64,000 nucleotides of DNA, from NCBI GenBank assembly GCA_963787975.1, contig CAWBEU010000010.1:27272-91271 (forward strand), in the 5' to 3' direction. Below the pieces are notes generated by a model. It was not told the origin of the DNA. It was given only the letters and a program-made list of their open reading frames with translations, and made no database searches. Below, one piece after another: positions 16,961 through 40,545 of the stretch. A program made the translations under genes and the position numbers. The DNA comes from an uncultured Thermoplasmata archaeon. Lineage in GTDB: Archaea; Thermoplasmatota; Thermoplasmata; Lutacidiplasmatales; UBA184. How positions within the stretch are numbered: position 1 is the first letter of the stretch; the number at the start of each line of letters is the position of its first letter.

Positions 16961-17033
16961 AGCCCCGTGGTGTAGTGGCCAAGCATGCTGGCCTTTGGAG
17001 CCGGCGACAGCGGTTCGAATCCGCTCGGGGCTA
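16961..17033 (+). tRNA. tRNA-Gln (anticodon TTG)
   Basis: Hand-folded cloverleaf: acceptor AGCCCCG/CGGGGCT, U8, D arm GTGT-AGTGGCCAA-GCAT, anticodon arm CTGGC-CTTTGGA-GCCGG, T arm AGCGG-TTCGAAT-CCGCT, discriminator A. CCA is not encoded. The A1:U72 pair is typical of archaeal tRNA-Gln. Confidence 0.9.
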
Positions 17034-26668: not shown

Positions 26669-26974
26669 TCATCTCGGAGAGGGACCCGTTTCGGGGCTGA
26701 ATGTGCGAATGGCCCCTTGGGCGTTGAACGCCACCTTACATGCGTAGGACGCGCCGCCTCGAACGGCCCGGCAGGTTCTCCCCCGACGATCGCCTGCTAT
26801 GTCAAGACTATCGACCGTGGCCCACCCCGTCTCGGCCTTGATTCGGTCCACCAAATTTCGGAACTGGGCGGCACAGACGTCGCAGCAGAAGAACAGCCGT
26901 GTCCCGTCCACCTCTTCCCAGAGGTTCCCCCAGCTGGAGTCGCAGATGGCGCAGGCCGCATAGTTAACTTTCAA
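26669..26974 (-). CDS. Cys-rich TRASH/YHS-like (Ta0938-like) metal-binding protein
   Basis: Within ORF 26669..27001. TTG 26974 overlaps the upstream stop. CAICDSSWGNLWEEVDGTRLFFCCDVCAAQF fits the C-x2-C ... FC-x3-C-x3-F TRASH/YHS pattern. Confidence 0.5.
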   Translation of the reverse strand: MKVNYAACAICDSSWGNLWEEVDGTRLFFCCDVCAAQFRNLVDRIKAETGWATVDSLDIAGDRRGRTCRAVRGGASYACKVAFNAQGAIRTFSPETGPSPR

Positions 26975-27860
26975 ATTGGGCCGCCCGCTCGAGCCGAGCA
27001 ATCAGATAGTCGTCGAACAGGTCCGCCGAGCGGAGGAACGTGGATTGGACGTCCTCGATACGACCCGCCGGGGTGGCGAACTGATCGACGAGGGCGAGCG
27101 CCTCGTCCGAGTGTCCCACGTCCGCCTCGTAGCCCTCTCGGAGAAACGCCTTGGTGGCCCCGGTGACTTCCGAGCCCGAAAGGATGCCCGGGTCGAAGTA
27201 GCGAATGGATGCCCCCTCCTTCACGAGGTCCCGGTTGGCGATGAGCTCCAGGCTGTGCATCGCCGCCATCGCCTCCACCCAGTGCTCTCCGGTGGCGATC
27301 CGATTCCATTCCTGGATCGCGACCGCCGTCGACGGGAGAGGAGGGGTTCGGAGTACCTGGTCCCGCTGGACCCCGAGGCTCTCCCCCATCTGGAGCAGAA
27401 GTTCGTAGTGGGAGGGCGTCGGCGTTCCGAACCCGCCAAACTCTGTGTTGAGGTTGTCGAGCTCATACCGGGCCACCTCGGGCTCGTCCGTTCGTGCCAT
27501 GATGTAGGCGCACGAACGCACCCATTGGCGGAGGAAGTGCTGATGCTCGAAGACGTAGCCGAGGAGGGTGGCGCGCGACGGATGCTGGAGCGCAGCGGGG
27601 AACGGGTGGGGGGGCTGGCCGTAGAACTTCGCGATGAATCGAGCCCTGATCCACGCGGACACCGGAGCCGAGCCGAGGTCAAAGAAGCGCCGGAGTCGGC
27701 CCTCCAACTCGGCGGGCGTCGATTTCTTCCTCGTGATGTTCTGGTTCAACCACCGTACGTGTGCGGCGTCGCTCGCATCGGCGCGTTCGACCAGGTGGTG
27801 GCTCAACGCGTCGTAGTCTCCCGGCGAATTGGGGGCCAAACACGCAGGGCATTTTGTCAT
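26964..27860 (-). CDS. Heme-oxygenase-like (iron-containing redox enzyme / PqqC-TenA-like) protein with N-terminal CxxC
   Basis: ORF 26964..27884; ATG 27860 is preceded by GAGGT. An all-helical protein with LLGYVFEHQHFLRQW, ELDNLNTEFG, and HSLELIANRD ... REGYEADVGH, consistent with the 7-helix heme-oxygenase-like fold with conserved Glu/His ligand positions. Confidence 0.55.
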   Translation of the reverse strand: MTKCPACLAPNSPGDYDALSHHLVERADASDAAHVRWLNQNITRKKSTPAELEGRLRRFFDLGSAPVSAWIRARFIAKFYGQPPHPFPAALQHPSRATLLGYVFEHQHFLRQWVRSCAYIMARTDEPEVARYELDNLNTEFGGFGTPTPSHYELLLQMGESLGVQRDQVLRTPPLPSTAVAIQEWNRIATGEHWVEAMAAMHSLELIANRDLVKEGASIRYFDPGILSGSEVTGATKAFLREGYEADVGHSDEALALVDQFATPAGRIEDVQSTFLRSADLFDDYLIARLERAAQFES

Positions 27861-27880
27861 TCGGGACCTCGAATTAGAGC

Positions 27881-28099
27881 TCAAAAGGGAAAGTCGGCGG
27901 GGAGGCGCGCCCGCAGGCGTTGGTACTCGGGATCAGCGGCGGCAAATCGTTCGCGCATCTGACGCAAGGTCTCCTTCACGTCCTCGGGGGTCCGGTGGCG
28001 GCTATCCGCGACCATCTCGATCGTTCGTTCGAAATCCGCGTGGCACGCCTCGAAGCAGTTTCCCATGCCCGTGAGCAATTCGCGCTCGCGTGGATTCAC
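27881..28099 (-). CDS. Small helical protein, first gene of the heme-oxygenase-like operon
   Basis: 72-aa ORF (MNPRERELLTGMGNCFEACHADFERTIEMV...). Its stop abuts the next gene. No family recognised. Confidence 0.4.
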   Translation of the reverse strand: MNPRERELLTGMGNCFEACHADFERTIEMVADSRHRTPEDVKETLRQMRERFAAADPEYQRLRARLPADFPF

Positions 28100-31377: not shown

Positions 31378-32298
31378 GTGGAGATCAGCGACCTAATCCT
31401 TCCCCTCGGGGCCGTCGGGAGTCTCGCCGTCGCTCTGTATGTGGGCTGGAAATTCTACCATAGGTACTATCAGGCCGTTCCTCCGAACCGCGCTCTGGTC
31501 CTCTACGGTGGCTCTCGTTCCCACGGTCCTTCCTCCACGAACCAGTCGGTGGACCTGAGGCTCCCTCGGATCGTGGTGGGCGGAGGCGTGTTCGTCCCGC
31601 CGTGGCGGCAAGGGTCGGACCTCCTTTCCCTCAGCCCGCTGGACGCGGACGCCCGGGTAATCTTCGCCGGAACGGACCCTACGGAGACGCCGTGGGAGGT
31701 TCGCTTGGCGGTCCAGGTCAAGATCCCTGTCGACCCTCGAATGCTCTCGACGGCGGCCGAGAATCTACTCGGTCGTAGTGAGCCGGAGATCCGGGCCCTG
31801 GTCGTCCGCACAGTCGAGGCCATCGCGCCGGCAGTGGCCCTCCGGGAGCTTTCGAACGACCCGGGAGCCGGCTGGGATCGGTTGGCCGCCGAAATCCAGG
31901 CCGCGGTCGCTCCGGAACTCGTCGCGATGGGATTGGAGATCCGGACGCTCTCGGTGACTCAGCTGCGGCACCTCTCAACGCAGGAGCGAACTGACGTCTC
32001 GGCGGTGGGAGCTCCCCACATGTCTCGGGACCTGCTCTGGGCGTCGGGTGACCTCGGGGTACGGCTACGGGGCGTCGAGACCCGTCTGGACCGAACCGAG
32101 CGAAGCCTGGGGCTCCTCGGTGCCGAAGTGATGCGACAGGGGAAGGACAGTTCGCAGTTCCCGGAGCTTCCGGCGTTACAGCCTTACGATTCGACGGGGG
32201 ACGAGCGCTCGTCTCGGCCCTCCATCCGCGGCTCGCGAGGAGCCGCGGGAGGGGGAGTCGGCGGGGCCACCCGACCTCTGTTGGATGCAGAAGGGTAA
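31378..32298 (+). CDS. SPFH/Band-7 (flotillin-like) membrane protein
   Basis: GTG start; N-terminal TM helix LILPLGAVGSLAVALYVGW, then YQAVPPNRALVLYGG and an SPFH-like core (VRLAVQVKIPVDPRML...AENLLGRSEPEIRALVVRTVEAIAPAVALRE...). The C-terminal part is helical. Confidence 0.6.
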   Translation: MEISDLILPLGAVGSLAVALYVGWKFYHRYYQAVPPNRALVLYGGSRSHGPSSTNQSVDLRLPRIVVGGGVFVPPWRQGSDLLSLSPLDADARVIFAGTDPTETPWEVRLAVQVKIPVDPRMLSTAAENLLGRSEPEIRALVVRTVEAIAPAVALRELSNDPGAGWDRLAAEIQAAVAPELVAMGLEIRTLSVTQLRHLSTQERTDVSAVGAPHMSRDLLWASGDLGVRLRGVETRLDRTERSLGLLGAEVMRQGKDSSQFPELPALQPYDSTGDERSSRPSIRGSRGAAGGGVGGATRPLLDAEG

Positions 32299-33328
32299 GA
32301 GGAAAACCATGTGCCCAGCAGCGATTTTGGGGGACAGAGCTTGCGGAAAGACGACCTTCCTGGGACTGCTCTACGCAGCCCAGGTCAAGTACGGTACTCG
32401 GGTGGTGGACTCGTTCCGGTTCCACGCCCCGTTGCAGTCGCTCCGCTTGATGAGCCAGGTCTACGAGGGAATGAAGGACGCCCGCTTCCCGGGCGCGACG
32501 CTCAAGGACGAAATGACCGAAATCGGCTTCGTTTTCGGCTACAGGAAGGCGCTCTCCGGCCGACTACCGGCGGTGCTGAAAGAGAAGAACTGGGTCAACC
32601 CGTTCGCCAAGCTCCAGTTCGCGGCCTACGATGTCTCCGGCGAGGACGTGCAGGAATTCATCGAAACCGGCGTCGCGGCGAGCCCGATCATTCAGCAGCT
32701 CATGAAGAGCCACATCGTTGTCGTGCTGGTCGACTGCAGCAAGATGACGACGGAGATCGACTCTCCGCTGTTCCGCCAGATGCTGAAGTACGACAGCGAG
32801 GTCGCGTCCCTGCTCGTCTCGCTCCAAACCTACAAGCGCCAGGAATTCTCGCGCATGAAGGCCCAGGGACTGAGTGCGGGAAACCCCGTGATCTACCCCG
32901 CGATGGTCCTGTCCAAGTTCGACTCGATCCGCGACGAGGTGCTCGTGAAACTGGGACTCCACCGCGGAGTGCCTGCGGGCGACCAAAAGCGCAAGCGGAA
33001 GGAGTACGCGGAGGCGTTGCTCCGGGTCTTCATGCCACAGAGCCTCTCCCAGATCCGCGGAGGGAAGGTCGCCGGGGTCAACTTTGACCAGGCCGCCTAC
33101 TTCTTCAGCTGGGTCCGGACCGAGACCGTCGAAGCCGGCATGCAGCCCGTCGGGGCGCCCCGCATCGTCCGCAAGGGCTTCTCCGCCGACGGCGGAGCGG
33201 AGCCGGACTTCTCGTACGACGACTACGTCGCGTTCATCGAGCACTTCCGCGACGTGGCGAACAAAGTGCCAGACGAGATCGTCGAGCAGGCGACGCTCCA
33301 GCCCGCCCCCGCAGCGGCGCCCGCGTGA
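32285..33328 (+). CDS. P-loop GTPase, Arf/Sar-like motifs, uncharacterised family
   Basis: G1 ILGDRACGKTTFLGLLY (Lys codon AAG at 32348-32350), G3 AAYDVSGEDV (compare Arf WDVGGQD), and G4 VLSKFD. An alternative start, ATG 32309, follows AGAGGAAAA. Paralogue of 34257..35189. Confidence 0.65.
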   Translation: MQKGKRKTMCPAAILGDRACGKTTFLGLLYAAQVKYGTRVVDSFRFHAPLQSLRLMSQVYEGMKDARFPGATLKDEMTEIGFVFGYRKALSGRLPAVLKEKNWVNPFAKLQFAAYDVSGEDVQEFIETGVAASPIIQQLMKSHIVVVLVDCSKMTTEIDSPLFRQMLKYDSEVASLLVSLQTYKRQEFSRMKAQGLSAGNPVIYPAMVLSKFDSIRDEVLVKLGLHRGVPAGDQKRKRKEYAEALLRVFMPQSLSQIRGGKVAGVNFDQAAYFFSWVRTETVEAGMQPVGAPRIVRKGFSADGGAEPDFSYDDYVAFIEHFRDVANKVPDEIVEQATLQPAPAAAPA

Positions 33329-34194
33329 AGGGCGGACGCGCGATGACCGACGCACAACTGGAGGGTCTCCTCGTGGAGAGCCCGGAGGAGGTCCTCCAAC
33401 TCGAGCACTGGATCTATGGAGCCAGTCCCGAGAAGGGCTACGGGACGAAGGCCGAGTCGATGGGACTCAATGGGCCGCTGTATCAGCGCTACCTGGGGAG
33501 TCATATGACACCGGTCCGGGTGGAGAAGACGGCGAGCGGATCGACAGTGATCGATGCCCGCATGATCCACCCTGCTCCCGCCAACGACGAGGTCTTGCTG
33601 TCCATCCTCGGGCGCGGCGTGGCCGATGAGTACAACCGCCCAACAATCCAGAACCACACGGTTGTGTTGCCCGGGAAGCTGCTTCGCGCCGGTAGGCTAT
33701 CGTTCACAATGGCCGAGGGCGCCATCCTGGACTACGACCGACGGGTACCCAAGGCGAGTGGCCGCATCGAGCCGCTCTCGCTACGCCTGCCGCCCGAGAG
33801 TGCGCCACGAGAGAACCCAGGGACGGGCATCCGACGCTTTATCACGAAGGCCGCGGTCGACACGCTGGTCAGTCGGTTCCTGGCCGATGGGCACGGGAGG
33901 ACCCTTCTCCTCTGCCGCGGCAGCACTCACCAGTATCGCAACGAGCTCCTCTACAAGCTAGTGGAGCTGCTGAGCGCCGGCGGGGAGATTCCTCAGTTCA
34001 CCGCCATCAGCGATGCGCCTACGCTGAGCGCGATGAATCACTTCCGACTCGCTATCTCCTCGCGCGGAGTTCGGGCGGATGGGACCTGGACCCTGCTTGA
34101 CGCCAGCATCGACCGAGCGACGCTCCAGCCGATCCGCGGACGTGCCCCGGTTTACTCAAGAGTGGCCGAGGCGTTTGGGAACGTGAGCCCTTGA
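33325..34194 (+). CDS. Hypothetical protein with GAP1-N-like N-terminus (GTPase-associated)
   Basis: GTG 33325 overlaps the preceding stop (GTGA); ATG 33343 is an alternative. The N-terminus LQLEHWIYGASPEKGYGTKAESMGL resembles the hQLHYTS..G..G.Q.kA.S.G signature I recall for GAP1 N-terminal domains. The rest is unassigned. Confidence 0.45.
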   Translation: MKGGRAMTDAQLEGLLVESPEEVLQLEHWIYGASPEKGYGTKAESMGLNGPLYQRYLGSHMTPVRVEKTASGSTVIDARMIHPAPANDEVLLSILGRGVADEYNRPTIQNHTVVLPGKLLRAGRLSFTMAEGAILDYDRRVPKASGRIEPLSLRLPPESAPRENPGTGIRRFITKAAVDTLVSRFLADGHGRTLLLCRGSTHQYRNELLYKLVELLSAGGEIPQFTAISDAPTLSAMNHFRLAISSRGVRADGTWTLLDASIDRATLQPIRGRAPVYSRVAEAFGNVSP

Positions 34195-34256
34195 TGCGGG
34201 TCGCCCGGGGTCCCCCAGGGTCCACCCCACCGGCGTGATCGCGGGCGAGGAGATCG

Positions 34257-35189
34257 ATGGCCTCCGCGCTCGTCCTCGGTGAGCGGGGCTGCGGCCTCAC
34301 GACGTTCGTCGGGCTCCTCTACACTGCCCAGGTCCGTCTCGGAACGGAGAACGCGGATGAGTTTCGTTTTCACGCCGAACGCGAATCCATCCAGCAGATG
34401 GAGGCGGTCTACGGCGAGCTCGGCGCCGGCCGATTTCCGGCGGCCGACATCGATTGGGAGCAACATCCCCTGTCCTTCGTGTTCGGCTTCCGGAGGGGGC
34501 ACATCGCTTGGTTCGCCGGCGGGGGCGCGTCCGGCGAGCAGGGGTTCTCGACCGTCCGGTTCCAGGTGGGGGGCATGCCGGCGGACGTGGTCCACGAGTT
34601 GCGGGACCACGACGCCATCTTGGATCGCACTACCCTGAATCTCCTGCGGAGTCCGATTCAGATCCCTATCGTGGATGGCGCATGGCTGGTCCCGGACCGC
34701 TCGAGCATCGCGGGGTTGCCGCTCGCACGGTACGATCAGCACTTGGCCGCGACTCTCGACCTGCTTCGGAAGTTCCTCGCGGCGGACCGGGACCGGCGCG
34801 CCCGCCAGATGTTTCCCCTCTTCGTCGTGACGAAATTCGACCGAGTCCGAGAGGAGACGCTCAAGGCGCTCGGAGCCCCCGAGGGCGCCCCGGGAGATTG
34901 GACACCCGAGGCCCGACGAGCGGTGGGAACAAGGATCCTCGAAGGATACTTGCCGGCCACGGCCGCCTTCCTGGCCCGGGCCACAAAGGACGGTGTCCGG
35001 CTCGCGGAGCCCGGCTGGTACTTCAGCGGTCTTCGGACGGAGGAGAGGGGCGACGAGATCAGGATTCTCCGACGGCGAATATCCCCGGTCAGCGGCTGGG
35101 AGCCGGAGTACCCCTTCGAAGAGTACCGCGGAATGCTTGCTCGGATCGGAGAGCTTGCGGGACGGCTCCCCGCCGAGCCGATCGAGTAG
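34257..35189 (+). CDS. Pseudo-GTPase paralogue of 32285..33328 (Walker-A Lys replaced by Leu)
   Basis: The ATG is preceded by GAGGAG. VLGERGCGLTTFVGLLYTAQVRLGT..FRFHA aligns residue for residue with ILGDRACGKTTFLGLLYAAQVKYGT..FRFHA. The G1 Lys is Leu (CTC at 34296-34298), G3 is FQVGGMPADV (Asp lost), and G4 VVTKFD is retained. Confidence 0.6.
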   Translation: MASALVLGERGCGLTTFVGLLYTAQVRLGTENADEFRFHAERESIQQMEAVYGELGAGRFPAADIDWEQHPLSFVFGFRRGHIAWFAGGGASGEQGFSTVRFQVGGMPADVVHELRDHDAILDRTTLNLLRSPIQIPIVDGAWLVPDRSSIAGLPLARYDQHLAATLDLLRKFLAADRDRRARQMFPLFVVTKFDRVREETLKALGAPEGAPGDWTPEARRAVGTRILEGYLPATAAFLARATKDGVRLAEPGWYFSGLRTEERGDEIRILRRRISPVSGWEPEYPFEEYRGMLARIGELAGRLPAEPIE

Positions 35190-35194
35190 AGCGG

Positions 35195-36913
35195 CTACGC
35201 CGACGCGGCCGGATCAGGAACGGCGCGATACCGGTAGCCCTCTCGGTGCGACCCCTCACGAACAACGGACCATCCGGGGAACTTCCAGGTCCCACCCTCC
35301 GGCACGAACTGGGGATCCCCCTGGCTCAGCTCGCCCAGTTCCGCCTCGAGGTACTCATGGTCGGTGGCGACCTCGGGGGCGATTATTCCCTTCTGGAGGA
35401 GAGTGGTAAGCAGAGGGAGTCCTGCGGGCCGTCCTCGCCACTTAACAGCCAGGAACGCCTTTCGAAACTCTCCGTCCCGGAGGAGTTGCTCCCGGAGGCT
35501 GGCATACGGCGGCCGATTCCGGTAGTCCCGCGGCGGGGCGTCTAGCCGTCGCTTCTCCCGGCGGCTTTCCTCAACGACGGCGCGCCAGGTTGCCGCCGAG
35601 GCGGCCTTGGCCTCCCAGATCGAGACCGCGTCTACCTGTTCGTCCTCGCCCTGGCCGCCGGCAGAGGCACCGCCAGAGTCCACCCCTTCCGGATGCTCCT
35701 GCGTGGCGAGCCGGCCTCCAGCCTTCCGCGGTCCCTTCGGGGTGACTAGTGTGAAGGCCAGCGCCGCGCCGCTTGCCGCGCCCGACGGGGGTCGGATCTG
35801 AAGCTCCTCGCAATCCGGGTACCGGTTCGGATGCAGCACAATGAAGGGACCGCTCTCCGAGGCGCTGAACAATGTTGCGAGCGCCTCGTTCACGGTGGCG
35901 ACCTGCCGACGGACCGCTAGCTCGCTTACCCGGATGAGAGGAAGGCCGGCCTCGGCCTTTCGAGGACGCGAAGCAAGGTCATCGACGAAGGCTTGGGACA
36001 CCTCGGCCTGAATCTGTTGCGTCGCGGTTCGACTGACCGCGCCTTCCGCGGCATGCGACCGGGACAACCCACGTCGGACCCGATGTCCCACGCTCCCTTC
36101 GCGGATGGCCTGCTGGTGCACCGCCCAGAGCCGCATGTTCAGCCAAGGGTGGAGCTTCCCCCCACTCACCTTCGATTCGGCAAAGATTCCGCCCCAGCGA
36201 TCTTGGGCCGTCTCCGCCCAGGTGGTGTCGTCCGGGCTGTGTCGGTACCAAGTCAACGCGAATTCCCGGAGAAGAGCCCCGGCGCTGAGCGGATCGTCGA
36301 CCTCGCGCTTGACTCGCTCCATCAGGGCCTCCGAGCGTGCCGCGAGCAGCGCAAGCAACTCCGGGTCCCCCGCGCCCTCGCGGAGCAAGGGAGCGAGCGG
36401 AATCTGGTTCAGCGCCTGAATGTCGAACTGTTCGGCCGGGTCAAGAGCGAGGAAGCTCCGTAGGGTTTCGGAGCGGACCGGCCGCCCGATTGGCCGAACG
36501 GAAGCTCCCGGCGACGGCTGCGAGTCGGGTAAGGCGGGAGGGGGCTCTGGTAGTGAGACGGGCGGAGATTCCGGTGGAGCGACGGGTACCCGGATGGGAC
36601 GGCTGGGTTCTGAGGCGGTTAGAGCCCGGGTCTCGGGTGGCGCCCGTTCGGGAGACTCGGACCCCGCGTGAGGAGCTGTTCGACGCAAGACCTCCACGTC
36701 GTGCAACCGGCGGTGGTGCTCCCGCTCGATGCGCAGTCGCTCATCCGCTCGCCGGCGATCCTTTTCGCGCTGGATTCGGTCGGCGTCCGTCTCGTTCACC
36801 ATGCGGCAGGGGTCGCCAGACCCAACCAAAATTGGGGCGGCCCGAGGCATTAATCGTTTCGTCGGGGGAAGGCCGGAGGCTGGTCGTCCTTCGGTGGTGT
36901 CAAGGCCGGGCAA
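35195..36913 (-). CDS. Large hypothetical protein (charged coiled-coil N-terminus, Pro-rich linker, helical body)
   Basis: 572-aa ORF. The likely start is ATG 36802 (MVNETDADRIQREKDRRRADERLRIEREHHRRL), because 36913 leaves only 44 nt to the divergent dodecin gene. Its stop is 5 nt from the stop of the pseudo-GTPase gene (convergent). No family recognised. Confidence 0.5.
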   Translation of the reverse strand: MPGLDTTEGRPASGLPPTKRLMPRAAPILVGSGDPCRMVNETDADRIQREKDRRRADERLRIEREHHRRLHDVEVLRRTAPHAGSESPERAPPETRALTASEPSRPIRVPVAPPESPPVSLPEPPPALPDSQPSPGASVRPIGRPVRSETLRSFLALDPAEQFDIQALNQIPLAPLLREGAGDPELLALLAARSEALMERVKREVDDPLSAGALLREFALTWYRHSPDDTTWAETAQDRWGGIFAESKVSGGKLHPWLNMRLWAVHQQAIREGSVGHRVRRGLSRSHAAEGAVSRTATQQIQAEVSQAFVDDLASRPRKAEAGLPLIRVSELAVRRQVATVNEALATLFSASESGPFIVLHPNRYPDCEELQIRPPSGAASGAALAFTLVTPKGPRKAGGRLATQEHPEGVDSGGASAGGQGEDEQVDAVSIWEAKAASAATWRAVVEESRREKRRLDAPPRDYRNRPPYASLREQLLRDGEFRKAFLAVKWRGRPAGLPLLTTLLQKGIIAPEVATDHEYLEAELGELSQGDPQFVPEGGTWKFPGWSVVREGSHREGYRYRAVPDPAASA

Positions 36914-38568: not shown

Positions 38569-39150
38569 GTGGACCCTGCCGTTCCGCCCCAGAGCGCCTC
38601 GCTCCCGCCGAGCGCGGTGTCGCTGGAGGACCGCCGCTGGCTACACGACAAGTTCGAGCGCCTGGCGGCCGAGGAGGGGCAGCTCGCGGCCGGAAGGACG
38701 TCGTACTTCGCCGCCATCGGCACGGTCTTGATCACCGCGATGGTCGTCGCAGTCGCTGACCTGTCAGGGAACCCGCTCGAGCTGACGTTCTTCATCACGT
38801 TCCTCTCTGTTCTTGGGGTCCTCATCACGTTCGTCTGGGCCGTGCTGCTCCATCGCACGAACGATGCCCAGAGCTTGTGGCGAGAATCGAACTTGCGCCT
38901 CGAGCAGCTGTCTCCACCGATCGAGGGGTCCATACCCGTCCCGGTGACCCTCCGGTCGGGAGCGTCTCTTTCCGTGAACCTCCTGCGTCCGTACGAGTCG
39001 CATGCGGCCCGCTTTTCGAAGGCTCGGTCGATCTCGTGGATGGACCGAGTGAACCCAGAGGGTCTCACGGAGGTACTGCCGGTCACCTTCCTGATCGTTT
39101 GGTCAGCGGCGCTGGTCGTCGTGTGGGCTTGGTACCTGTTCTTTCACTAG
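38569..39150 (+). CDS. Hypothetical membrane protein
   Basis: 193-aa ORF (GTG start) with three clear hydrophobic helices (YFAAIGTVLITAMVVAVA, LTFFITFLSVLGVLITFVWAVLL, VLPVTFLIVWSAALVVVWAWYLF). I preferred it over the antisense ORF 38493..39086. Confidence 0.45.
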   Translation: MDPAVPPQSASLPPSAVSLEDRRWLHDKFERLAAEEGQLAAGRTSYFAAIGTVLITAMVVAVADLSGNPLELTFFITFLSVLGVLITFVWAVLLHRTNDAQSLWRESNLRLEQLSPPIEGSIPVPVTLRSGASLSVNLLRPYESHAARFSKARSISWMDRVNPEGLTEVLPVTFLIVWSAALVVVWAWYLFFH

Positions 39151-39165
39151 CGCGGGCGTCGATGT

Positions 39166-40545
39166 CTAAACGTCGACCTCAGCGTGGACCTTCGCCCGGC
39201 GGACCGCTCGGACCAGGGCAGCATGGTCTTGCGCCGTCTGGTCCGCGTACGCCTCGGCGAAGGATGCAACGGCGACATCGAAGAGATCTCGGGTCCCCAG
39301 ATACCCGCTGATGAAAGCCGGGTCGCCCGTCCGAGCATGCGCCCGCGCCAGCGCCGCTCCGCAGAGGCCGGCCTGGCCGATCAATGTCTTGGGACGCAGC
39401 GTCGCGGCGTCGGTGGAGAACTTCATGTCCCGCAGCTGCCGGAAGTAGAAGTCGCGGGAGTTCAACCGGCTCCAACCGAGAAAGATGTCGCTGGCTTCCT
39501 GGATGAGGTGCTGGCCGATCACGACTCGTTGCGCGTGGTTTTCGAACCGGCTCGGTCCCGCATAGGGTTCGAGAACGGAGGCGTTGGCCTGTTTGAGCTG
39601 GAGAAAGAGGGGGTCTTCCACGTCGCGATCGGCCATGAGCAATATGACCGAACAGACGGTACCCACGCTTCCCACACCGACCACTTTCTGGGCCACGTCG
39701 ACGATGTGGTAGCGTTCCAGCAACGTCCGCCGCTCATCGGCGAGGGTCCTCATGTACTGATCGAAGAACTTCCGAGACTCCTCGGCGTCGGCGGGATTCT
39801 TGTAGTGCACGATCAACGGCGGGTCGTCCCGGATCTTGTATCGCCCATGGACGGTCTGTACCAATTTCGGGAAGGCGTGGAAGACGGTGCGGCGGCGGGC
39901 TCGACGGACCGCCTGGGCGATGATCCTTCGGCCCTCGCGGCTGGACTGGCGCGAGATGGTCCGGCGGTCGATATGAGAGTACCACGTGTCGAGGTATCGA
40001 GCGGTCCCGAACGCCTGCATGTGGTGGCGGTAGGCCCGGAGGGCGGTGAGAGCGGCCCTCCGGCCGATGTCGCGTGAGAACCGGTTGTTCCGGCCCACCA
40101 GGACGAGGCTCGTTGCGAGTCGCTTGACATCCCATTCCCACGGGCCGGGCAGGGTCTCATCGAAATCGTTGACGTCGAAGACCCGATTTCGCTCCGGAGT
40201 CGCAAACACGCCGAAATTGCTGAGATGAGCGTCCCCGCAGAGTTGCGCTCTGCCTCCGCAGATTGGCGTGGTCGCTAGGTCGCGGGCCATTATGCTCGCC
40301 GACCCGCGATAGAACATGAAGGGCGAGAGCGACATGCGCCCGTACCAGATCGGGACGAGGGACGACACGCGGGTGTGGCTCGCGGCTTCGAGCGTGTCGA
40401 CCGGGTCGGGTCGCCCTTTGGGTGGAGTCCAGCCGGCATGGCTCGACCGGGGCACTCGTTGCCGGGCGGCTTTCCCGTCCATGTACCGCTGCCGACGCGT
40501 TCGGGCGGGAGCGGAGGTCCGCCCCACCGAGATTGCCATGCCCAC
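39166..40545 (-). CDS. DUF2252 domain protein
   Basis: MSLSPFMFYRGSASIMARDLA, GDAHLSNFG and FDVNDFDETLPGPWEWDVKRLATS match the DUF2252 family as I recall it. Confidence 0.7.
   Translation of the reverse strand: MGMAISVGRTSAPARTRRQRYMDGKAARQRVPRSSHAGWTPPKGRPDPVDTLEAASHTRVSSLVPIWYGRMSLSPFMFYRGSASIMARDLATTPICGGRAQLCGDAHLSNFGVFATPERNRVFDVNDFDETLPGPWEWDVKRLATSLVLVGRNNRFSRDIGRRAALTALRAYRHHMQAFGTARYLDTWYSHIDRRTISRQSSREGRRIIAQAVRRARRRTVFHAFPKLVQTVHGRYKIRDDPPLIVHYKNPADAEESRKFFDQYMRTLADERRTLLERYHIVDVAQKVVGVGSVGTVCSVILLMADRDVEDPLFLQLKQANASVLEPYAGPSRFENHAQRVVIGQHLIQEASDIFLGWSRLNSRDFYFRQLRDMKFSTDAATLRPKTLIGQAGLCGAALARAHARTGDPAFISGYLGTRDLFDVAVASFAEAYADQTAQDHAALVRAVRRAKVHAEVDV

Follow-up and report, generated by a model that had tools for sequence, protein, structure and literature searches.

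Within a 64,000-nucleotide stretch of DNA from an uncultured Thermoplasmata archaeon (Lutacidiplasmatales; UBA184; GCA_963787975.1, contig CAWBEU010000010.1, positions 27,272 to 91,271; hereafter the window), we identified a conserved five-gene cassette built around a predicted pair of active and inactive GTPases. It encodes an SPFH/flotillin-like membrane protein (g1), a P-loop GTPase (g2), a two-domain protein whose modeled fold resembles that of TagF (g3), a degenerate paralog of the GTPase (g4) and, on the opposite strand, a mostly helical protein (g5). The cassette is a real conserved gene unit of soil and peat Thermoplasmata, and we class it as a variant among the DO-GTPase-centered systems. 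Our preferred and still tentative reading is that it encodes a vertically inherited, operon-encoded and constitutive membrane-associated GTPase switch, the mechanism of which we infer below.

An initial annotation of this DNA had proposed that four plus-strand open reading frames (ORFs) form a tightly coupled unit. All four were found where it placed them; they are separated by gaps of 10 (g1-g2), 14 (g2-g3), and 62 (g3-g4) nucleotides, and the same gene set is conserved elsewhere. The annotation missed g5, a minus-strand ORF of 572 codons (35195-36913) whose convergent stop lies 5 nucleotides beyond that of g4. It had also let g2 overlap g1 from an ATG at 32285, a start that we disfavor. Because g2 homologs are 339 residues long and begin with MCPAAILGDR, the ATG at 32309, which the annotation had listed as an alternative, is most likely the true start; it lies 10 nucleotides past the g1 stop and is preceded by GAGGA. 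Similarly, g3 had been started at a GTG overlapping the g2 stop (33325), and the ATG at 33343 is most likely correct, since a 99% identical protein (P0121) is 283 residues long and the majority of g3 homologs begin with MTD.

To survey the cassette, a g3 alignment was scanned against one genome per GTDB species, which returned 71 loci, and the surrounding genes were mapped by tblastn. Nearly all of the loci are titled as Thermoplasmata or "Methanobacteriota" metagenome-assembled genomes (MAGs). Genes g2, g3, and g4 occur together in essentially all of them, in a limited set of arrangements. In type A (about 45 loci, including the window's relatives), g1, g2, g3, and g4 follow one another on one strand and g5 comes last on the other. 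The four type A' loci begin with the opposite-strand g5, followed by g1, g2, g3, and a g4-like gene. Type B loci have no SPFH gene and read g4, g2, g3, and then g5 on the opposite strand, and in one locus (L002) g5, g2, g3, and g4 all share one strand. Throughout types A, A', and B, g3 directly follows g2, and every locus has a g4 ortholog, placed after g3 (A and A') or before g2 (B). The association of the SPFH gene with g2, g3, and g4, first noticed on a single contig, recurs in some 49 further species-level genomes, of which 45 have this order and four are the variants. Across the 71 loci, the cassette is held together despite rearranged flanks and three gene orders.

Two remote metagenome contigs of about 50% G+C (L077 and L078) extend this picture: each carries a g3-like gene with an intact and a degenerate GTPase, the g3-like gene standing before the GTPases in L077 and after them in L078. 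Taken together with the 71-locus survey, these contigs define the universal core, which is therefore the active GTPase, its degenerate paralog, and g3. The g5 gene is attached throughout the Thermoplasmata (nearly all loci), and the SPFH gene is the add-on of one clade.

The rates at which the cassette genes diverge are also informative. The median identity of g2 between species is 94 to 96%. In six species, the entire neighborhood is syntenic; there, citrate synthase is 79 to 88% identical and g3 and g4 are about 85% identical. For the remaining type A species, the corresponding values are about 74% for g3 and about 52% for g4. The fastest-diverging genes of the cassette are g1 and g5. We saw no domain or effector swapping among the 71 loci and no recognizable effector domain.

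The g2 product has the complete motif set that had been attributed to it, namely, G1 (GDRACGKTT), Walker B (YDVSGED, within FAAYDVSGE), and G4 (SKFD), together with a switch-I-like FPGAT, and alignment indicates that these motifs, FPGAT included, are kept in the active orthologs. By BLASTP, g4 matches g2 over its full length (28% identity; E value, 3e-44). Its P-loop lysine is replaced by leucine, and it has neither the switch-I threonine nor the DxxGE motif but still carries TKFD, in agreement with the earlier view of g4 as a paralog with a destroyed catalytic site. By these motifs, g2 and g4 are predicted to be an active/inactive GTPase pair. The inactivation is systematic: Walker B is degenerate in all g4 orthologs, and DxxGE is always lost. 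The P-loop position itself varies, the lysine being replaced by Leu in the window, by Ala in L002, and by Arg in L077, and it is still present in the type B degenerate copies examined (L004/P0118 and P0119).

Which family these GTPases belong to was addressed by profile searches. DO-GTPases are TRAFAC GTPases with a Walker-B glutamate (hhhhDxxGE), often encoded as two paralogs (Kaur, Burroughs, Iyer & Aravind 2020, PMC7159879). The g2 protein matches Pfam DO-GTPase2 (PF19993; 8.5e-5, 22.8 bits) and DO-GTPase1 (PF19975; 0.005, 16.5 bits), in both cases below the gathering score of 27 bits, and the match is confined to the P-loop region, approximately the first 60 to 70 residues. No DO-GTPase match was found for g4 in the Pfam scan. 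A family member (P0118; L004:8001-8918) reaches 34.8 bits with PF19993, above the gathering score, and about half of the 120 listed g2 homologs have precomputed matches to PF19993 or PF19975. The DO-GTPase connection suggested by the initial annotation is thus backed by the Walker-B glutamate and by P0118, with the reservation that the g2 of the window stays below the gathering score, and profile similarity points to g2 and g4 as distant DO-GTPase1/2 relatives. The label "Arf-like" that had been given to g2 did not hold. No Arf, Ras, Roc, or Gtr1_RagA profile matches g2 or g4 at an E value of ≤1, and a profile of the GTPase family matches no PDB chain at an E value of ≤10. The sole Roc match in the family belongs to P0118 (0.12).

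The g3 product had been thought, from an N-terminal signature, to resemble GAP1-N domains, an identity that the profile searches do not support. Neither g3 nor any of 31 diverse relatives is matched by a Pfam, NCBIfam, or PADLOC model; in hmmscan, the window's protein is blank at an E value of ≤1, and 31 diverse relatives lack matches to GAP1-N1, GAP1-N2, GAP1-M, GAP1-C, and TagF_N at an E value of ≤10. The same GAP1 models match neither the g3 orthologs of L002 and L004 (35 to 38% identical; E value of ≤10) nor 10 fused relatives. A g3 family profile searched against PDB sequences gave nothing meaningful and no TagF match. Fold and loops lead to TagF instead. The AlphaFold2 (AF2) model of g3 (pLDDT, 69.7; pTM, 0.73) has two domains, an α+β N-terminal domain with the longin-like order β-β-α-β-β-β-α-α and an α/β C-terminal domain. 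In a Foldseek search of the PDB, its only significant match is TagF of Acinetobacter baylyi (9t0n; E value, 5.9e-5; probability, 1.0; 323 columns). Matches to Pseudomonas aeruginosa TagF, the Lst4 longin domain, C9orf72/SMCR8, GATOR1, and SEAC are insignificant, those to longin and DENN proteins having E values of 0.07 to 0.44.

TagF, an accessory protein that regulates bacterial type VI secretion, consists of an α+β N-terminal domain and an α/β C-terminal domain, without other known relatives, and its conserved residues G8, K9, D15, and F16 and S79, D81, and R85 lie in exposed partner-binding loops (PMC5995506). The most conserved loops of g3 are Y-G26-x-x-P29-x-x-G32-Y33 and D95-x3-R99...N-H105 (N-H-T), of which G32, D95, R99, and H105 are invariant over the broad g3 family. 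Because of the Foldseek match and the resemblance of these loops, we call g3 TagF-like, as judged from its model. The two-domain architecture of TagF (DUF2094; 9T0N, 2QNU/6IZ8) is matched over its full length, and the TagF loops that bind Fha or are essential have probable counterparts in the G..P..G and D-x3-R motifs of g3 at similar spacing (69 residues between the G and D loops in g3 versus 73 in TagF), a comparison made at the level of sequence. Unlike TagF, g3 lacks the Lys of the G-K pair, has no detectable sequence-profile similarity to TagF, and comes from an archaeal host with no type VI secretion system (T6SS) genes nearby. Moreover, whereas TagF binds Fha or Hcp, the partners to which g3 is genetically linked are GTPases.

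Relatives of g3 are few, a g3 family profile having matched only 66 clusters among 1.84 billion representatives, and some of the remote ones are fused to TIR, AAA+/RuvB-like, HerA/DUF87, or DUF7862 domains. Fused proteins of this kind include P0402, P0369, P0370, P0391, P0384, P0385, and P0419; the AAA+/RuvB-like fusions carry a winged helix, one of them also DUF835, and DUF7862/FnIII-like regions occur elsewhere. This suggests that the g3 domain is a general NTPase-partner module that is used in defense-like architectures too.

For g1, the initial description of an N-terminal transmembrane (TM) helix followed by a band-7/SPFH core is confirmed. The protein has one N-terminal hydrophobic helix (residues 6 to 24; KD19, 1.88), a Pfam Band_7 match marginally above the cutoff (E value, 4.7e-5; 23.9 versus 23.6 bits), a partial match to NCBIfam FloT (9e-9), and a low-complexity C-terminal tail, and its best PDB sequence matches are flotillin-1 and flotillin-2 (SPFH; E value, about 1e-3). 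It shares the TM helix and the SPFH core with scaffolds such as FloT/FloA, HflK/C, and stomatin, from which it differs by a very divergent domain that barely exceeds the Band_7 threshold and by the lack of an NfeD partner. Only type A and A' loci have the gene, immediately before g2; it is absent from the type B loci L055 to L074 and from L002 and L004. Accordingly, the proposed recruitment of an SPFH protein stands as a linkage within the window's clade, in which g1 is an accessory part, but not as a feature of the core. At the head of the L077 cluster (L077:6-749; about 51% G+C), directly upstream of the g3-like gene, we found a gene for an unrelated protein of 247 residues that has a TM helix at its N terminus and matches no Pfam model; it seems to be a separate membrane anchor occupying the place that the SPFH protein has in the window. 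A link of the cassette to the membrane is supported by the TM helix and SPFH domain of g1 and by the TM protein heading the L077 cluster.

Homologs of g5 adjoin the GTPase and g3 genes in L001, L002, L004, and nearly all of the 71 loci. Most of them begin at the position of Met38 (36802; MVNETD). A TATA-like element, GATTAATG (ATTAAT; window 36846-36858, minus strand), lies about 45 nucleotides upstream of the Met38 ATG; located inside the longer, TTG-initiated ORF, it is consistent with the shorter start. In the protein (AF2 pLDDT, 76.5), a long charged helix at the N terminus is joined by a disordered, proline-rich linker to a conserved body of about 420 residues that is mostly helical and in which many polar positions are invariant. 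It matches no Pfam (GASH included), NCBIfam, or PADLOC model, and its fold has no match in PDB or BFVD. The L002 homolog bears an N-terminal zinc ribbon, and L057 (7516-10317) has two tandem g5 copies after g4-g2-g3.

How might these proteins work together? We propose that g2 and g4 would pair as a heterodimer, with GTP cycling confined to g2. By analogy with the partner-binding face of TagF, g3 may dock on g2 through its two conserved loops and control the nucleotide state of g2, the invariant Arg99 being a candidate arginine finger or clamp. The g5 protein could be an output or adaptor subunit, and the SPFH oligomer would tether the complex to membrane microdomains. The near invariance of g2 and the housekeeping setting of the cassette suggest a constitutive role at the membrane and not a rapidly evolving antivirus weapon. 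Possible roles include membrane stress response, remodeling, or assembly control.

Several points weigh against this switch. The g3 model is of only moderate quality (pLDDT as given above), with low TM-scores to TagF (0.35 to 0.38), and no action on GTPases is known for TagF itself. Both the g2-g4 heterodimer and the g3-g2 contact are drawn from gene order and analogy, and g5 could instead be a toxic effector. The DO-GTPases, the sole family to which a sequence link exists, have been described in conflict systems; the fusion of remote g3 domains to TIR, AAA+, and HerA is a pattern typical of defense, and some MAGs seem to hold two cassettes.

These points bear on the strongest alternative, which we consider possible but less probable than the constitutive switch: a DO-GTPase/GAP1-type conflict system, acting in antiviral defense or abortive infection. 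Here, the GTPase pair and g3, as a divergent GAP1, would constitute a threshold switch, and the sensing of an invader would free g5, the SPFH protein, or both to act as effectors directed at the membrane. Kaur et al. described a GAP1 partner encoded downstream of the GTPase, with occurrences in a few archaea; they inferred dimers from paired paralogs and, in their scheme, GASH goes with GAP1-N1 and an FNIII-repeat protein with GAP1-N2, accompanied by variable effectors (PMC7159879). The cassette follows part of this logic. In the window and in the loci surveyed, there are two paralogous GTPase genes, the g2 Walker B has the DxxGE motif that g4 lacks, a conserved nonenzymatic partner is encoded directly downstream, a further all-helical protein (g5) is comparable to GASH, and membrane links recur. 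The Pfam matches to DO-GTPase1/2, from subthreshold to threshold, agree with a conflict role, as do the relocation of the cassette as a unit between genomic contexts, the MAGs that may carry two copies, and the zinc ribbon of the L002 g5-like protein, a domain common in such systems.

The cassette also differs from those systems. No member of the cassette matches GAP1-N, GAP1-M, GAP1-C, or GASH; g3 has, according to its model, two TagF-like domains and not three, and there is neither an FNIII component nor a variable effector domain, in keeping with the lack of effector swapping in the survey. One GTPase copy is systematically inactivated, and neither an SPFH partner nor g5 has been described for those systems. 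None of the five proteins matches PADLOC-DB 2.0 at an E value of ≤1. No relatives of the cassette were found in the viral collection (IMG/VR contig scan), and the plasmid collection gave no match in a tblastn search with a DO-GTPase2-positive family member as the query. The mode of inheritance appears to be vertical and conservative. Citrate synthase is less conserved than g2, the divergence of g3 and g4 among close relatives proceeds at the pace of housekeeping genes, and the flanks are of the housekeeping type and not a defense island. The conflict module envisaged in the initial annotation is therefore possible but disfavored by the conservation pattern and by the lack of PADLOC matches and viral relatives; what keeps it in play is the fusion of remote g3 relatives to TIR, AAA+, and HerA domains. 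On balance, the evidence favors the constitutive switch.

We regard as unlikely a second alternative, in which the cassette is a prokaryotic homolog or analog of the longin-DENN regulators that act on heterodimeric GTPases, with g3 as a longin plus DENN-like GTPase-activating protein (GAP) using Arg99 as its finger at a membrane platform. Comparably doubtful is the more specific version, in which the TagF-like g3 would be a longin-plus-DENN-like GAP or guanine nucleotide exchange factor of the active/pseudo-GTPase heterodimer on flotillin microdomains. The idea draws on the strand and helix order of the modeled N-terminal domain, followed by an α/β domain, on the clustering of the weak Foldseek matches on Lst4 longin, C9orf72/SMCR8, GATOR1, and SEAC, and on the invariant Arg and G..P motif, which are reminiscent of the Arg finger and the GP motif in longin GAPs. 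Like the longin GAP complexes (FLCN-FNIP, GATOR1 NPRL2/3, and C9orf72-SMCR8) and DENN modules, the cassette would combine longin-like and α/β domains, a loop Arg, and a GTPase pair (here active and inactive) with a membrane scaffold.

However, all of the longin and DENN matches are statistically insignificant, and no GTPase partner is known for TagF, the sole significant match. The G-x-x-P of g3 is not a contiguous GP motif, and the likeness is drawn at the level of sequence. The GTPases are unrelated to Rag, Arf, or Ras by profile (E value of ≤1). FLCN-FNIP and GATOR1 act on Rag dimers and C9orf72-SMCR8 acts on Arf; in those systems both GTPases are functional, whereas one is dead in the cassette. 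In addition, the Thermoplasmata do not lie near the eukaryotic stem. We therefore treat the parallel in GP motif and Arg finger as a lead only. If the specific version were true, two-domain longin/DENN-type GTPase regulation would predate eukaryotes and occur outside the Asgard archaea, a GTPase regulator would be the ancestor of the T6SS brake TagF, and GAP1-N, TagF, and the g3 family might be one superfamily. Chance adjacency of unrelated genes is negligibly probable and was rejected, given the recurrence in 71 species-level genomes with differing flanks and three gene orders, the short gaps, and the nearly abutting convergent stops.

A looser resemblance exists to MglA-MglB and other GTPase pairs with roadblock/longin GAPs, in which an operon places a GTPase beside a gene for a small α+β regulator, a mode of regulation held to be ancient (Zhang et al. 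2012). In contrast, g2 is a protein of about 340 residues that contains large insertions and does not resemble MglA or Ras; g3, with two domains and about 280 residues, is no roadblock dimer; and the pseudo-GTPase and g5 have no counterpart there.

In the literature searched, we found no paper describing this cassette and no account of an SPFH gene joined to a GTPase operon; a PSP study says of DO-GTPases only that a role in membrane stress is predicted. Of the five proteins, g2, g3, g4, and g5 cannot be usefully assigned to a family, and neither the g3 nor the g5 family is represented in Pfam, NCBIfam, or PADLOC. A DO-type pair with one systematically dead copy, a protein modeled with a TagF fold and, in the window's clade, a flotillin-like scaffold had not been linked before. 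Should the proposed mechanism be true, the TagF fold would gain a nucleotide-switch role that T6SS studies have not suggested, and a widespread and strongly conserved membrane-associated GTPase machine would join the known biology of uncultured Thermoplasmata from soil and peat. Since this variant behaves as a housekeeping locus, it also raises the question of whether DO-GTPase systems are always conflict systems.

Table 1. Genes of the cassette and selected neighbors (window coordinates)
Feature	Position	Strand	Basis or remark
g1, SPFH/flotillin-like membrane protein	31378..32298	+	Band_7, FloT, and flotillin-1/2 matches; TM helix
g2, predicted active P-loop GTPase, 339 aa	32309..33328	+	Motifs; homolog length and start
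g3, TagF-like two-domain protein (modeled), 283 aa	33343..34194	+	AF2 model, Foldseek, conserved loops
g4, predicted pseudo-GTPase paralog of g2, 310 aa	34257..35189	+	BLASTP, alignment
g5, helical conserved partner, 535 aa from Met38	35195..36802	-	ORF extends to 36913; adjoins GTPase/g3 genes in other loci
TENA/PqqC-like protein with N-terminal C2H2 zinc finger	26964-27884	-	Neighboring gene
8xMP octameric membrane protein family member	38569-39150	+	Neighboring gene
DUF2252 protein	39166-40545	-	Neighboring gene

The surroundings of the cassette (Table 1) are metabolic or housekeeping-type genes, not a defense island. The flanking products include, besides those listed, citrate synthase, an OB-fold protein, an SRPBCC protein, dodecin, MsrB, and VIT1, which bears out the ordinary metabolic context noted initially. 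G+C content is uniform over the region, the cassette matching the adjoining DNA. A promoter and terminator scan, designed for bacterial signals, was uninformative for this archaeal host. A tRNA-Gln gene (TTG; 16961-17033) is the sole RNA gene in the window according to ARAGORN and Rfam.

Some individual loci of the survey deserve mention. One locus (L028) is labeled "bacterium" and one protein (P0059) "Deltaproteobacteria bacterium"; members of this type are 65 to 75% identical to Thermoplasmata proteins, and misbinned contigs are more likely than a true bacterial occurrence. On a 2.18-Mb long-read chromosome (OY970259.1; L001/L026), the g2 C terminus and the g3 and g4 N termini read as shifted in frame or cut short when compared with every other locus (L001:8001-10926), with g3 called at 221 residues and the g4 N terminus scrambled; these disruptions reflect either indel sequencing errors or real decay. 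Two nonidentical cassette copies or fragments lie on separate contigs in YP1.bin27 (L045 and L052), JOPF086 (L034 and L044), and SMAG_U12138 (L035 and L036), and they could be paralogous systems, strain mixtures, or split assemblies. In the type B locus L004/L005 (3712-7659), the cassette sits beside an HD-domain gene, two FtsZ genes, and a NusG/L11/L1/L10 ribosomal cluster. In L002 (1-7934), giant Flg_new_2-type surface proteins of about 1,470 residues precede the locus, and thermopsin and PKD-domain proteins follow it.

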